DNA of 64,000 bases from a bacterium (GTDB lineage Bacteria; UBA8248). The notes under the pieces are model-generated. The model was given only the letters and a program-made list of their open reading frames with translations. It made no database searches and had not been told where the DNA came from. This document shows, in pieces, positions 17,336 to 22,395 of this stretch. The position numbers and the translations under genes were made by a program. The first letter of the stretch is position 1. Each line of letters begins with the position of its first letter. The stretch is taken from contig OZ253442.1 of NCBI GenBank assembly GCA_965261085.1, positions 1,856,001-1,920,000 of the forward strand. Direction: 5' to 3'.

Positions 17336-19829
17336 ACATCCGATACGCAGACCACCGGCGCGGTGGAGGTGGACGGCTCGGCGACGGGCGAGATCGAGAC
17401 CTCGAATGACTTCGACTGGTTCGCGGTCGACCTGGTCGCCGGCCATACCTACGTCATCGACCTGGAGGGAGCCGACAGCGGCGGTGGCGCCCTGCAGGAC
17501 CCGGTACTGCGAGGCCTCTACGACGCCGACGGCAACCGGATTGCGGGCGCCCGGGACAACGATGGCGGCGCTGGCAGGGACGCCCGGTTGACCTTCACCG
17601 CCACCACCACCGGCGCCTACTATATCGAAGCTCGCGGCCATTCGAATCAGACGGGCGAGTACACCGTGCGCGTGACGGAATGGGTGGATACGGACGCCGA
17701 GCGCGGCGGCGCCGCCGCGCTCGGCGATATCACGGCTCTCGCCGGGCCGCAGTTTCCGGCGGCATCACTCGACGGCTCCTCCGACTCGGTGGACTACTGG
17801 CGTTTCACGCTTTCGGAGGCCAGGAGGGTTGGACTGGGTTTGCGCCAACAGGATGCGAATGCCGACCTGTTTCTGGAGGACGCCGAAGGCAACGTCCTCT
17901 ACAGCGGCACGGAGGAGGGGACGGCGAGCGAGTGGATTTCGCAGACGCTCCTGGCCGGGACGTATTTCGTGCGTGTGGAAGCGCAGGAAGAAGGCGCCAA
18001 CGAATTCAAACTGCGTTATGGGGTGAGTGGGGCCAATCCCGACGTGGTGGCCGCCTTGGAACAGCAACAGGAGGGGACGGATGAGGCGCCGGCGTTCGCG
18101 GAGGGGAGCTATGCGTTCTCACTCGCGGAGAACACGGACGGCGGCACTGTCCCCGTTTCACTCGGCTTGGTACAGGCGACGGACCCTGAGGACGAGACGA
18201 TTACCTACAGCATCGAGGCGGGCGACTCCGGTGGCCTGTTCGCCATCGACCCGGGGACGGGCGCCCTGTCGTACCAGGGCGCGGGCGAGGACTACGAATC
18301 AGGGACGACCAGCTACGAGTTGACGGTGCGGGCGAGTGACGGCGGCCTGCACAGCGACGTGACCGTGACCGTCAACGTCACCGACGTAGAGGAATACGTC
18401 ATTCTTGCGCAGCAGGGGACGGATGAGGTGCCGGCGTTCGGGCAGACGAGCTATGCGTTCTCACTGGCGGAGAACGCGGACGGGGGCACGAACGGGGTGT
18501 CTCTGGGCGCGGTTTCGGCCACGGACCCGGAAGACTCGACGATTACCTACAGCATCGAGGCGGGCGACCCCGGTGGCCTGTTCGCCATCGACTCCGAGAC
18601 GGGCGCCCTGTCGTACCGGGGCGCGGGCGAGGACTACGAGTCGGAGACGAGGGGCTACGAGCTGACGGTGCGGGCGAGTGACGGCGGCCTGCACAGCGAC
18701 GTGACCGTCACCGTCAACGTCACCGACGCGCAGGAAGCTCCGGCGTTCGGTCAGGAGAATTACGCGTTCTCGCTCACGGAGAACGCGGGGGGGGGACACG
18801 ATCAGTCTTTCGCTCGGCGTGGTACAGGCGACGGACCCGGACGATGACCCGGTTGCCTACAGCATCGAGGCGGGCAACCCCGACGGCCTGTTCGCGATCG
18901 ACGCCACGACGGGCGAGCTGTCCTACCAGGGCGCGGGCGAGGACTACGAATCCGATGCGATCCGCTACGAACTGACGGTGCGGGCGAGCGACGGCAGCCT
19001 GCACAGCGACGTGACCGTCACCGTCAACGTCACCGACGTAGCCGATGTGGAGGAATACGTCAGTCTTCAGCAGGAGGCTAGTGTGTCCGAACCGGACGGC
19101 CAGGACCTTCCGGCAGGCGCCTCCACGACCGGCCGGGTTGCGGTGGGTGGCTCGGCGACGGGCGAGATCGAGTTCAACCGCGACCGCGACTGGTTCGCGG
19201 TGGAACTGGAGGCGAACACGAACTACCGGATCGACCTGGAGGGCTCGCCGACCGGGAACGGCACCCTGAGGGACCCGTATCTGCGCGGGGTCCACGACGC
19301 GAATGGCGTCCGCCTCCCCGGCACGACGAACGACAACGGCGGCGTCGCCCGGAACAGCCGGGTGGAGTTCACGGTGGACGATGCCGGCGCCTACTATGTG
19401 GCGGCCGGCGCTTATAAAAGCGGGCAAGGCGCCTACAGGCTGTCGGTGAGGGAGGTCCCGGACGATTTTTCGGCCGGGACCGGGACGACCGGCACGGTGG
19501 ATGTGGGTGGCTCGGCGACGGGCGAGATCGAGTTCCACCGAGACCGCGACTGGTTCGCGGTGGAGCTGGAGGCGAACACGACCTACCGGATCGACCTGGA
19601 GGGTTATTGGACCGGGGCCGGTACCCTGAGAGACCCATACCTGCGCGGGCTCCACGACGCGGACGGCAACCTCCTCCCCGGCACGACGGCCGACGACGGG
19701 GGCACGGACTGGAACAGCCGGATGGAGTTCACTGCCGACGATGCCGGGACCTACTATGTGGCGGCCGGCGCCGGGGGAACCTGGGAAGGCGCCTACACGC
19801 TGTCGGTGTCGGTGGAAGAGGTCATGTGA
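17321..19829 (+). pseudogene. PPC-PPC-3x cadherin-like-2x PPC repeat protein, split by a +1 frameshift in a G9 tract (18787-18795)
   Basis: PPC-like motif GEIE...DxDWF.V.L..G..Y.IDLEG; cadherin motifs ATDPE, YSIEAG, FAID, DYES, YELTVRASDG; removing one G restores ENAGGDTISLSLGVVQATDP in register with the sister repeats. Confidence 0.8.
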
Positions 19830-20279
19830 GGTGCGCGGCGGCGACCGCGAAAGCTGTCGTACGGCCTCAGAGTGCGGCCTCCGCGGGAGGCCCTGCCGGT
19901 GAACCCGGCGGGCCGGGCCGTGAGGGCCAGTCCCGCCGTGCCATGCGGTGGCCGACCCCGTGTTCGTTGGCGATGGAGGCAGGTTTGGCCGCGTCTTCGC
20001 CGGGCATGCGCCGGATTCGAATCGACACTCGAAGGACTCGGCGGCGGCGCTCTCCCAGGGGGATGGGATGAAAGCCGCCGTTTCCGGGGCGTTCACCGCA
20101 TTTCCCGGGAAATCACCCGATTCGAGTTGAAAACAGGAAGTTTACATACGCACTATACACCCTCGGCATGACGATTTGTCGTTTATTTTTTGGACGTCAT
20201 GTGATATATTTTATTTGATTGTTCATATAAATTTGCATATAATTTTCTTTTTTTATCCACTTGAGAAAGGAGGCGGACC

Positions 20280-20654
20280 ATGCCTGACGACTATTCATCC
20301 ACGACGCAGACCACCGGCGCGGTGGAGGTGGGCGGCTCGGCGACGGGCGAGATCGAGACCAGGAGCGACCGCGACTGGTTCGCGGTAACCCTGGAGGCGG
20401 GCAGGATCTACCGGATCGACCTGGAGGGTTCGGATTCCAGGGGCGGCACCCTGTACAACCCCTATCTGCGCGGGATCTACAACGCGGACGGCGTCCGCTT
20501 CGCCGGCACGACGGACGACGACGGCGGCGCGGACCGCAACAGCCGGGTGGAGTTCAGGGCGGAGGAGAACGCCACCTACTATGTGGCGGCCGGAGCCTAG
20601 AGAGACCGGGAAGGCGCCTACACGCTGTCGGTGACGGCGGAAGAGGTCATGTGA
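20280..20654 (+). pseudogene. Single PPC-repeat cassette with in-frame TAG (20598-20600)
   Basis: MPDDY start; after the TAG the frame continues RDREGAYTLSVTAEEVM-stop, like its sister genes. Confidence 0.75.
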
Positions 20655-20805
20655 GGTGCGTGTGAGCGTTCTGGGGGGATTTTCCGGATCCATCGACGAG
20701 GAGAAGCGAGTTGCGCCGGGGCGCCCATTGCCCCGGCTGGGCGGACCCATCGCCCCTCTCGGGGCGGGCCCTATTTCTTTATTCACTTGAGAAAGGGGAC
20801 AGACC

Positions 20806-22395
20806 ATGCCTGACGACTATTCGGCTAATACGGAGACCACCGGCAGGGTGACGGTTGGCGGCTCGGCGACGGGCGAGATCCAAGCCGGGTTCGACCGCGA
20901 CTGGTTCGCGGTGACCCTGGTGGCGGGCAAGACCTACTGGATCGACCTCGAGGGCTCGCAGACCGGGGGCGGAACCCTGTTCAACCCGTATCTGCGGGGG
21001 GTCTACGACGCGGACGGCGGTCGCCTCCCACGCACGTCGAACGACAACGGCGGTGAGGGCCGCAACAGCCGGCTGACGTTCACGGCCGGGGAGGACGCCA
21101 CCTACACGGCCGGGGAGGACGTCACCTACTATGTGGCGGCCAGCGGGCTTGGATACAGACTAGGCACCTACACGCTGTCGGTGACGGAGGTCCCGGACGA
21201 TTTCGAGGCCGATACCGGGACGAGCGGCGTGGTGGAGGTCGACGGCTCGGCGACGGGCGAGATCGAGACCGGGGGCGACCGCGACTGGTTCGCGGTGGAA
21301 CTGGATGCGGGCAGGACCTACCTGATCGACCTGGAGGGTTCGCATACCGGGGCCGGCACCTTGAGGGACCCGTATCTGCGCGGGGTCTACGACGCGGACG
21401 GCAACCTCCTCGCCGGCACGACGAACGACGACGGGGGCGCGGGCCTCAACAGCCGGGTGACGTTCAAGGCCGGGGAGGACGCCACCTACTATGTGGCGGC
21501 CGGCGCTTATGGAGACAGGGAAGGCGACTACAAGCTGTCGGTGACGGAGCTTGCGTACGACGATTTTGCGGCCGGGATCGAGACCACCGGCAGGGTGGAG
21601 GTCGGCGGCTGGACGACGGGTAATGTCGAACCCGGGGGCGAGATCGAAACCGGGTACGACCGCGACTGGTTCGAGGTGCAACTGCTTGCGGGCACGACCT
21701 ACCGGATCGACCTCGAGGGCCGGAAAACCGCGGACGTCACCATGACGGATCCATATCTGTACGGGATCCACGACGCGAACGGCGACATCATCCACGGCAC
21801 GGTCGACGACAACGGGGGTAGATTGAACGTTAACGACCGGGACAACTACAACAGCCGGGTGACGTTCACGCCGACGGCGGACGGCGCCTACTACGTGGCG
21901 GCCGGCGGCGCGGGAAGCGATCCAGGCACCTACAGGCTGTCGGTGATGGTCGCGGACGATATTGCGGACGATTTTGCGGACGGGACCGAGACCACCGGCG
22001 AGGTGGTTGTCGACGGCTCGGTGACGGGCGAGATCGAGACCAGGGGCGACCAAGACTGGTTCAAGGTCGAGCTCGATGCGGACACGACCTACCGGATCGA
22101 CCTCGAGGGCTTGGTGATCGTGGACGACCGCTTCCTGGAGAGCCATTTGCCCCCGAATGTGTGGATGGCGTTTTACGGGAACCCGTACACATACGGGGTG
22201 AACACGTATCTGCGCGGGGTCTACGACGCGAATGGCGTCCGCCTCGCCGGCACGACGAACGACAACGGGGGCTATGGCCCCGACAGCCGGGTGACGTTCA
22301 CGGCGGAGGAGGCCGCCACGTACTATGTGGCGGCCGGCGCCTGGTATAACGGGGAAGGCGCCTACACGCTATCGGTGGAAGAGGAGGTCATGTGA
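20806..22395 (+). CDS. Protein with four PPC-like repeats
   Basis: Four repeats (DD[FY]...TTG.V.V.GS.TGEIE...DRDWF.V.L); MPDDY start and EEVM end. Confidence 0.85.
   Translation: MPDDYSANTETTGRVTVGGSATGEIQAGFDRDWFAVTLVAGKTYWIDLEGSQTGGGTLFNPYLRGVYDADGGRLPRTSNDNGGEGRNSRLTFTAGEDATYTAGEDVTYYVAASGLGYRLGTYTLSVTEVPDDFEADTGTSGVVEVDGSATGEIETGGDRDWFAVELDAGRTYLIDLEGSHTGAGTLRDPYLRGVYDADGNLLAGTTNDDGGAGLNSRVTFKAGEDATYYVAAGAYGDREGDYKLSVTELAYDDFAAGIETTGRVEVGGWTTGNVEPGGEIETGYDRDWFEVQLLAGTTYRIDLEGRKTADVTMTDPYLYGIHDANGDIIHGTVDDNGGRLNVNDRDNYNSRVTFTPTADGAYYVAAGGAGSDPGTYRLSVMVADDIADDFADGTETTGEVVVDGSVTGEIETRGDQDWFKVELDADTTYRIDLEGLVIVDDRFLESHLPPNVWMAFYGNPYTYGVNTYLRGVYDANGVRLAGTTNDNGGYGPDSRVTFTAEEAATYYVAAGAWYNGEGAYTLSVEEEVM

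Follow-up and report, generated by a model that had tools for sequence, protein, structure and literature searches.

A family of PPC-domain repeat proteins with variable loops and mosaic ancestry in a UBA8248 bacterium

How can a family of protein repeats hold a framework nearly constant while a few short loops differ from repeat to repeat, and does such a pattern call for a mechanism like that of an antibody scaffold? The question is raised by a 64,000-nucleotide stretch of bacterial DNA (GTDB lineage UBA8248; assembly GCA_965261085.1, contig OZ253442.1, positions 1,856,001 to 1,920,000 of the forward strand), which we call the window and whose numbering is used here unless a genome position is indicated. 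A preliminary description, made from the sequence alone, saw seven closely related repeats of the PPC domain between positions 19084 and 22395 and proposed that they had diversified by segmental gene conversion together with diversifying selection on the binding face of a beta-sandwich. We find that the repeats belong to three adjacent genes of a larger family with the fold of the clostridial collagen-binding domain (CBD), and that several of them are products of recombination between repeats and between loci. Taken as a whole, the locus is probably best explained as part of a PPC/CBD-fold multigene family of matrix binders that are secreted by type I systems and evolve by recombination; diversifying selection on the loops is plausible and unproven, and the likeness to an antibody scaffold does not hold as a statement about mechanism.

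Genes, repeats and fold

The span from 19084 to 22395 is no single array. Open reading frames (ORFs) and a reading in three frames resolve it into parts of three tandem paralogous genes, A, B and C, lying head to tail on the + strand. Each has its own conserved leader, starts with ATG-CCT-GAC-GAC-TAT (MPDDY) and ends with GAA GAG GTC ATG TGA (EEVM and stop), and in all three the same ribosome-site region, cacttgagaaagg, precedes the MPDDY start. A +1 frameshift divides gene A (17321..19829, +) into two ORFs, at 17321-18847 and at 18819-19829; according to Pfam the gene encodes a PPC repeat and a divergent domain, followed by four cadherin domains and then by two more PPC repeats; an intact ortholog, P0121, is 854 amino acids long and 91% identical. 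Gene B (20280..20654, +) has only one PPC repeat, which begins like a first repeat and closes with the EEVM tail, its ORF cut short by an in-frame TAG. Gene C (20806..22395, +) encodes four PPC repeats in 529 amino acids and is intact, leaving two of the three genes broken in this assembly; its orthologs P0001, P0003 and P0004 (97, 90 and 89% identity) have five repeats each. The seven repeats, all on the + strand, are A_r3 (19092-19457) and A_r4 (19458-19826), delimited by alignment and hmmsearch, and, delimited by alignment, B_r1 (20283-20651), C_r1 (20809-21192), C_r2 (21193-21555), C_r3 (21556-21966) and C_r4 (21967-22392). Gene A also holds an eighth, more distant PPC repeat, A_r1 (17324-17683).

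A protein-guided codon alignment that places the seven repeats in register reproduces exactly the four lists of loops given in the preliminary description. The loop after GEI(E/Q) reads FNR, FHR, TRS, AGF, TGG, TGY and TRG; that after DLEG reads SPT, YWT, SDS, SQT, SHT, RKT or a long insertion; the residues before NSR/DSR are VAR, TDW, ADR, EGR, AGL, RLNVNDRDNY and YGP; and those after YYVAA are GAYKSGQ, GAGGTWE, GA*RDRE (the asterisk is a stop), SGLGYRL, GAYGDRE, GGAGSDP and GAWYNGE. The long insertions lie in C_r3 and C_r4. Framework and loops differ by much more than chance would produce: across 57 repeats of the genome the column entropy ranges from 0 to 3.5 bits, and omega, the ratio of nonsynonymous to synonymous substitution rates, is 0.28 in the strands against 3.08 in the listed loop columns. 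The columns of high entropy are 26-28 (after GEIE), 50-51, 54 and 58 (after DLEG), 71-74, 83 and 85 (the x positions of the GGxGxN turn before SR), 94 and 96, and 106-110 (after YYVAAG). To call the repeats closely related overstates the case, their pairwise DNA identity being 0.72-0.82. Each repeat has one GGxGxNSRV turn (columns 81-89, for example 21433-21459 in C_r2), and the variable residues before NSR are its x positions; the turn is reminiscent of the RTX calcium-binding nonapeptide, GGxGxDxUx.

The preliminary description also reported a tandem duplication of 24 bp at 21081..21129 (+), which TRF finds as 2.0 copies with a 96% match and which adds eight residues to the beta5-beta6 turn of C_r1. 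Since it is also present in the three orthologs, it is old and fixed.

The repeats are recognised by the Pfam PPC profile (PF04151, cut-off 25.9 bits) with scores of 73.3 for gene C and 49.0 and 46.5 for gene A; gene B, at 25.0 bits, falls just under the cut-off because its protein is truncated. An AlphaFold2 model of C_r2, built on an alignment of 148 repeats, is a seven-strand beta-sandwich with a pLDDT of 98.2. Its top PDB matches in Foldseek are the s3 collagen-binding domain of ColH (3jqw: E=2.3e-5, TM 0.64-0.67, root-mean-square deviation 2.2-2.8), the PPC domain of a Bacillus anthracis collagenase and ColG s3b, with TM 0.62-0.66 for the entries 1nqj, 2o8o and 4hpk. By sequence as well, a profile of the repeats matches the ColH CBD (E=5.8e-6), setting GEIE..DxDWF opposite ColH GTIENTSDQDYF and TYYV opposite RYYI. 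In the clostridial CBDs the N-terminal linker and acidic residues at the start of the second strand form a calcium site, and triple-helical collagen is bound through a cluster of surface tyrosines. Among the 148 repeats D3, D29 and D31, candidates for such a calcium site, either never vary or are conserved in at least 90%; DxDWF aligns to DQDYF of ColH, and the conserved Y99 and Y100 to its YY pair. On the strength of this model and these matches the seven repeats have the PPC/collagen-binding-domain fold, presumably of the calcium type. PPC domains typically follow a secreted peptidase on its C-terminal side and are cleaved from it; Pfam finds no peptidase domain in genes A, B or C, whose proteins open with a PPC repeat at residue 2.

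Judged by the hairpin topology of the model, the loops after GEIE (beta1-beta2) and after DLEG (beta3-beta4) share one pole of the sandwich, and the GGxGxN turn and the beta6-beta7 loop likewise share a pole, with the beta5-beta6 turn that bears the duplication at the opposite end. Whether the poles of the two pairs coincide hinges on the 20-residue connection between beta4 and beta5, which contains two isolated bridges and might pass from one side of the domain to the other.

The family, its proposed export and its likely ligand

Searched with a profile built from the window repeats, the 4.27-Mb genome yields 58 PPC repeats at 8 loci, which make up at least 12 genes or gene remnants in about 53 kb. 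The proteins are 124-1861 amino acids long and consist solely of 1-11 PPC repeats or of PPC repeats with cadherin domains. The homologous proteins number more than 1000, and 59 related loci occur in species-representative genomes, mostly metagenome-assembled genomes (MAGs) of many phyla, including Binatia, Alpha- and Gammaproteobacteria, Chloroflexi, Dehalococcoidia, Gemmatimonadetes, Entotheonella, Poriferisodalis and a Spongia bin (Spongia_Bin9). The family is found mainly in sponge-associated bacteria. Within the genus it appears in one of 18 other genomes at E<=1e-10, and in none of the 12 more distant genomes searched; from this scattered presence we take the family to be accessory and probably horizontally transferred. 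The one same-genus genome with the family, G004, has 16 repeats in a single locus (C3:1266000-1278000), where a gene of 1414 codons starts with MVDDY and is interrupted by a TAG that falls within the final strand of one of its repeats, a position unlike that of the TAG in the window. Our searches of the open-access literature returned no description of stand-alone PPC arrays in sponge symbionts.

The intact ORFs of the family encode acidic proteins (pI 4.05, 17-18% D+E) with 0-1 cysteine in up to 1861 residues. They start directly with MPDDY, apparently without a leader peptide, and end in acidic and hydrophobic residues (EEVM, VEEVL, VVDAI or VEDSM). Type I secretion substrates of the PrtD/AprD class likewise lack an N-terminal signal peptide, are acidic with few cysteines or none, and have a C-terminal signal that ends in acidic and hydrophobic residues. 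The genome encodes three PrtD (TIGR01842) and three HlyD (TIGR01843) proteins, all above the curated cut-offs, and each PrtD/HlyD pair directly adjoins a locus of the family, at 1.622, 2.474-2.477 and 3.320-3.323 Mb of the genome; some homologs carry RTX repeats (PF00353). From these adjoining pairs and from the leaderless, cysteine-poor, acidic character of the proteins we infer that they would be exported by type I secretion systems of the PrtD/HlyD type and would serve in binding outside the cell. Three observations weigh against this route: no RTX nonapeptide array (PF00353) is found in the window proteins, the window locus is without secretion genes of its own, and the family occurs also in phyla of the monoderm type (Chloroflexi, Actinomycetota-type MAGs), where a PrtD/HlyD/TolC pathway is unexpected. 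One secretion module, at 1621772-1625363 of the genome, looks like a decayed copy: its leader is intact, but of the family gene only some 37 residues are left, PrtD and then HlyD follow, and its PrtD exporter has an in-frame TAG where the two paralogs have glutamine (CAG to TAG).

Once outside the cell, the proteins would presumably act as calcium-stabilised, multivalent binders. One paper (PMC4356367) treats collagen-binding domains as a subclass of PPC domains whose linkers change conformation when triggered by calcium, and another (PMC6168687) reports that a PPC-containing segment binds insoluble collagen. By analogy of fold and from the habitat of the bacteria, the ligand is most plausibly the collagen-like matrix of the sponge. 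The likeness of fold on which the collagen idea rests is one at 15-22% sequence identity, which counts against pressing it far.

Recombination, loop diversity and broken alleles

The preliminary description drew its case for conversion from DNA segments shared between repeats, and an exact-match check finds all three at the places given: GACGCGAATGGCGTCCGCCTC at 19296 and 22225, GACGCGGACGGCAACCTCCTC at 19656 and 21391 (and at two further sites of the genome), and CTGGAGGCGAACACGA at 19206 and 19566. As evidence of conversion these segments fail, a GENECONV-like permutation test giving the A_r3/C_r4 fragment, a shared 21-mer, pair p=0.18 and a global p of 0.95. Segmental gene conversion together with unequal recombination is nevertheless strongly supported, by evidence of other kinds.

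One line of evidence is a tract of 1000 bp at 19638..20637 (+) that is base-for-base identical to positions 3299861-3300860 (- strand) of the genome, 1.42 Mb away. It runs from about column 61 of A_r4, across the stop of gene A and the intergenic promoter region, to about column 118 of B_r1, and includes both the copy of GACGCGGACGGCAACCTCCTC at 19656 and the TAG of gene B; the sequences flanking it are 60-86% identical on the left and unrelated on the right. At the other locus a gene of 1334 codons with eleven repeats, open apart from this TAG, carries the stop in its first repeat; the ortholog of that gene, P0227, has 12 repeats and is 89% identical. This first repeat, identical to B_r1 as far as about column 118, agrees with repeat 1 of P0227 at 57/57 positions in columns 1-57 and at 42/59 in columns 58-117, and with repeat 3 of P0227 at 40/56 positions in the head and 54-55/59 in the tail. 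Relative to P0227, B_r1 is by these matches a chimera of a repeat-1 head and a repeat-3 tail. C_r4 (21967..22392), set against three orthologs, has the head of ortholog repeat 4 joined in register, between DSRVTFT and AEE, to the tail of ortholog repeat 5 (AEEAATYYVAAGAWYNGEG..EEEVM), so that in effect one unit has been lost. Of the seven repeats, three can therefore be demonstrated, from their sequences, to be chimeras: A_r4 through the 1000-bp tract that begins inside it, B_r1, which is half converted, and C_r4 through fusion.

Differences in repeat number among orthologs are of the same kind. Orthologs have 8 or 12 repeats against 11 in this genome, and five against the four of gene C; P0258, with eight, includes a fusion of repeats 1 and 2, and the orthologs of gene A differ in the number of cadherin domains and in their C-terminal PPC repeats. 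The cadherin domains of gene A form a tandem repeat of 342 bases with an 87% match (18068-18728), present in 2-4 copies in the orthologs. The five heads of the gene-A type (leader, first PPC repeat and divergent domain; 17026-18060 in the window and at four paralogous loci) are 95-97% identical in every pairing, a star-like pattern that contrasts with the 72-82% identity among the downstream PPC repeats.

Statistical tests for recombination agree in part. For the seven repeats the PHI test gives p=0.018, 0.007 and 0.16 at windows of 30, 60 and 100 bases, and p=0.009 at short range on codon states, while on third positions or amino acids it is not significant (p=0.36-0.94). In the sister array of 11 repeats the result is p<=0.0005 whatever the window size. 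Taken alone, the five gene-A head paralogs are not significant (p about 0.10-0.12); with the cadherin part included they give p<=0.0005, in an alignment that the variable number of cadherin domains may disturb. What stands on the other side is that no fragment among the seven repeats reaches global significance in the GENECONV-like test (best global p=0.105).

The mechanism that we propose is as follows. Proteins exported by PrtD/HlyD-type systems would act outside the cell as multivalent, calcium-stabilised binders of the host matrix. Unequal crossing-over in register alters the number of repeats, and gene conversion acts between repeats and between loci, as the comparisons above show; this recombination yields chimeric repeats and limits divergence in the DNA of the framework. 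A small number of loops (those that follow GEIE and DLEG, the x positions of GGxGxN and above all the loop between beta6 and beta7) change as fast as neutral sequence or faster, in most cases because the entire loop is exchanged.

How far selection drives that change is harder to say. By the method of Nei and Gojobori, which ignores codon bias, the seven repeats give a ratio of 1.03 overall, 0.75 in the strands, 1.57 in the loops and 2.30 in the loops of the preliminary description. Pairwise maximum-likelihood codon models (F61 and F3x4), applied to the 28 phylogenetically independent closest pairs among 57 repeats, give an omega of 0.42 (F61) or 0.39 (F3x4) over all columns and 0.24-0.28 in the strands, which are under purifying selection. 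For the structure-defined loops taken together the value is 0.80-0.84, which does not differ from 1, and the 16 loop columns of the preliminary description give 2.5-3.1 (p=1.5e-6 to 3.5e-5; 3.08 at p=1.5e-6). In the 49 repeats outside the window, taken to avoid circularity in the choice of columns, those columns give 3.15 (p=3e-6), mostly from the beta6-beta7 loop.

Several results weigh against diversifying selection. The seven window repeats alone, with only 3 independent pairs, give an omega of 1.23 with a likelihood-ratio statistic of 0.07. Loop codons of the closest pairs that differ at a single base are nonsynonymous or synonymous in the numbers 81:21 against an expected nonsynonymous share of 0.74-0.75 (p=0.12-0.17). 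Among the four orthologs of gene C the variable columns number 7/54 in the loops of the preliminary description and 44/413 elsewhere (Fisher p=0.64), the latter comprising 10/123 in other loops, 10/174 in strands, 14/67 in linkers and 10/49 in insertions, and the beta6-beta7 loop never changes. The loops thus differ between repeats and are kept between strains, which fits fixed, repeat-specific specificities better than ongoing hypervariation. Of the proposal of diversifying selection, then, the high omega of about 3 in the loop columns stands, and the single-base test and the conservation of ortholog loops do not bear it out; we regard it as suggested and unproven.

These results bear directly on a simpler account, that of ordinary concerted evolution with relaxed loops, in which the framework is constant as the core of the beta-sandwich, the loops tolerate change at an omega of about 1 with no adaptive diversification, and the values above 1 are an artefact of whole-loop conversion and multi-nucleotide changes. 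Multinucleotide changes are a known cause of false signals of positive selection, and the loop codons of the closest pairs are bimodal, 184 being identical and 156 differing at several bases against 102 with a single-base difference; omega is inflated because loops are mostly either identical or wholly replaced. The structure-defined loops with an omega indistinguishable from 1, the single-base test and the conserved ortholog loops all suit this account, as does the recurrence of loop variants: where closest repeats differ strongly in a loop, an exact copy of one variant is found in a third repeat in 19/40 cases, which is consistent with templated exchange. It has to contend with an omega of about 3 (p about 1e-6) in columns picked on other data, and with the remaining 21/40 differences, where neither variant has another carrier in the genome. 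Since 44/57 of the beta6-beta7 loops are distinct, most of the diversity is not recycled from a small pool within the genome; and the conservation of each repeat's own loops in orthologs cuts the other way too, arguing for functional rather than drifting loops. We consider relaxed loops a serious possibility, though one we incline against, next to the preferred reading of a secreted, recombining binder family. The antibody analogy fares worse as a statement about mechanism, nothing here pointing to a programmed or somatic process.

The two broken genes invite a different account. Gene A loses its frame at a G9 homopolymer (18787..18795, +; three-frame reading); had the run only eight G, the reading would continue in frame as ..ENAGGDTISLSLGVVQATDP.. 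and pass uninterrupted along a cadherin domain. In gene B the TAG (20598..20600, +) occupies column 106 in the beta6-beta7 loop, the loop that reads GA*RDRE; it aligns with TGG of repeat 3, the likely donor, P0227 has tyrosine at the aligned position, and the identical TAG sits in the first repeat of the 11-repeat paralog. It was, on the evidence of the identical sequence, copied between loci within the 1000-bp tract. Recoding of TAG as a sense codon was rejected: a search for a tRNA with the anticodon CUA came back empty, and 29% of the long ORFs terminate in TAG; the in-frame TAG of G004 at another position and the PrtD TAG that aligns to glutamine also disfavour it.

Such alleles could belong to a switchable contingency system, in which slippage at poly-G tracts and null alleles spread by conversion vary the surface or secreted repertoire within a population. 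A single G separates the broken from the open form of gene A, and the run length differs between samples: one X5 contig has one G fewer (depth 34.9 of 34.9), and X1 and X7 keep G9. The family loci, 53 kb in all, contain 3 of the 73 G/C runs of at least 8 in the genome where 0.9 would be expected, one of them a G14 at a change of frame; the TAG allele is present at two loci inside the identical tract; and the gene A orthologs P0128 and P0138 end in frameshifted tails. The G14 run lies at genome position 3806779, in a gap of 506 bases between two family repeats, and a further G9 is at 3803975. Yet three tracts against 0.9 are a weak excess, homopolymers are the classic site of error in long-read assembly, the tract length differs between samples and not within one population, and the other in-frame stops resemble plain decay, as in the PrtD beside the truncated remnant (CAG to TAG) and in G004 with its TAG elsewhere. 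We therefore think switching unlikely.

The same features might instead be errors, the 1000-bp identity, the frameshift and the stop having arisen by collapse or cross-polishing of paralogous repeats. All three come from one single-contig assembly, so that a polishing or consensus artefact between paralogs is possible and tempers the case for conversion; the tract is exactly 1000 bp long, and the Logan short-read contigs over the region shatter into pieces of 130-870 bases, with paralogs and other organisms mixed, none of them shown to bridge the ends of the tract. Against this, the chimeras are seen at the protein level in comparison with independently assembled orthologs on other contigs, the orthologs show the same process in their differences of repeat number, the X1 and X7 contigs reproduce the G9 exactly, and the PHI signal arises in an array outside the tract. 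An artefact of assembly is, in our judgement, quite improbable as the explanation. Hypermutation of the loops by a diversity-generating retroelement would suit variation confined to short segments of a conserved scaffold, and is rejected as very remote, since the only two reverse-transcriptase genes of the genome (1.150 and 1.695 Mb) each lie more than 70 kb from any family locus (no search was made for a template repeat or for changes specific to adenines), orthologs keep the same loops, and the variation includes indels and swaps of whole loops.

Flanking sequences, meaning and comparison with known systems

Upstream of gene A lies a fragment of an IS110-family transposase (16056..16604, +; PF02371, E=7.9e-22), and positions 16326-17028 are about 90% identical to four other sites of the genome. 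The upstream region and leader of gene A occupy 17026..17320 (+) and end with cacttgagaaagg and then gacagaccATG; the segment 17026-18728 is 90-92% identical to four paralogous loci. The leader of gene C (20655-20805, +) is shorter and related to that of gene A, and the leaders match no Rfam family. Downstream of gene C a dispersed repeat of about 220 bases with short inverted repeats inside it (22775-22995) is 97.7% identical to genome positions 2245386-2245604 and 88-90% identical to two other sites, and beyond it an autotransporter of 1020 residues is encoded on the - strand (23051-26113; PF03797, E=1.3e-20), its passenger built of many repeats of about 60 residues that share the motif ..G.G.I.IDV......

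How sponge symbionts attach to their host, and are recognised by it, is largely unknown, and attention so far has gone to proteins of the ankyrin, cadherin and fibronectin type. A leaderless family with a collagen-binding fold that is linked to type I secretion offers a hypothesis that can be tested at the bench, namely multivalent, calcium-dependent binding of sponge collagen. Apart from its function, the locus shows with unusual clarity how conversion and unequal crossing-over shape repeats in nature, with breakpoints pinned to single codons and one case in which a nonsense allele was, by its sequence, copied between loci. A far bolder reading would make the PPC arrays an unrecognised, horizontally spread repertoire of host interaction in sponge symbionts across phyla, in which loops around the calcium site bind, recombination reassorts sets of loops and numbers of repeats, null alleles switch members off, and dedicated type I systems export the products, much like a combinatorial receptor repertoire but encoded in the germline and operating at the level of the population; we offer it as speculation that is unlikely to hold in full.

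Set beside known systems, the repeats stand nearest to the CBDs of clostridial collagenases (ColH s3, ColG s3a and s3b; a subclass of PPC, PF04151), with which they have in common the beta-sandwich, a detectable relation in sequence and the use of domains in tandem, known from s3a-s3b of ColG. They differ from the collagenases in having no protease module, in their 15-22% identity to the solved domains and in being leaderless and type I-linked where the collagenases are Sec-secreted. A second likeness is to the giant repeat adhesins secreted by type I systems, the RTX adhesins of the LapA, SiiE and MpIBP type, which are also acidic, cysteine-free and leaderless tandem beta-sandwich proteins, linked to ABC and membrane-fusion genes and varying in repeat number between strains; here, however, the unit is PPC and not bacterial Ig-like, the window proteins lack the RTX nonapeptide block, and the family is made up of many paralogous genes for proteins of 124-1861 amino acids rather than one giant gene.

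Systems that diversify by segmental conversion (msp2/p44, vlsE), and the variable lymphocyte receptors with their conserved scaffold and variable loops, resemble the family in joining a conserved framework to short variable segments, with conversion breakpoints inside the units. The family differs from msp2/p44 and vlsE in that it has no expression site with silent cassettes and no sign of programmed or within-host switching, and in that its orthologs keep their loops. Eukaryotic-like and adhesion-domain proteins (cadherin, fibronectin III and ankyrin; PMC8163846, PMC10947273) are enriched in sponge symbionts; gene A, with PPC repeats and four cadherin domains, is comparable to them, and relatives of the family occur in sponge-associated lineages of many phyla. 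In the open-access papers that our searches returned, PPC arrays are not named. As an accessory, type I-linked and self-recombining family of collagen-binding-type domains only, it is new as a variant of the known repeat adhesins.

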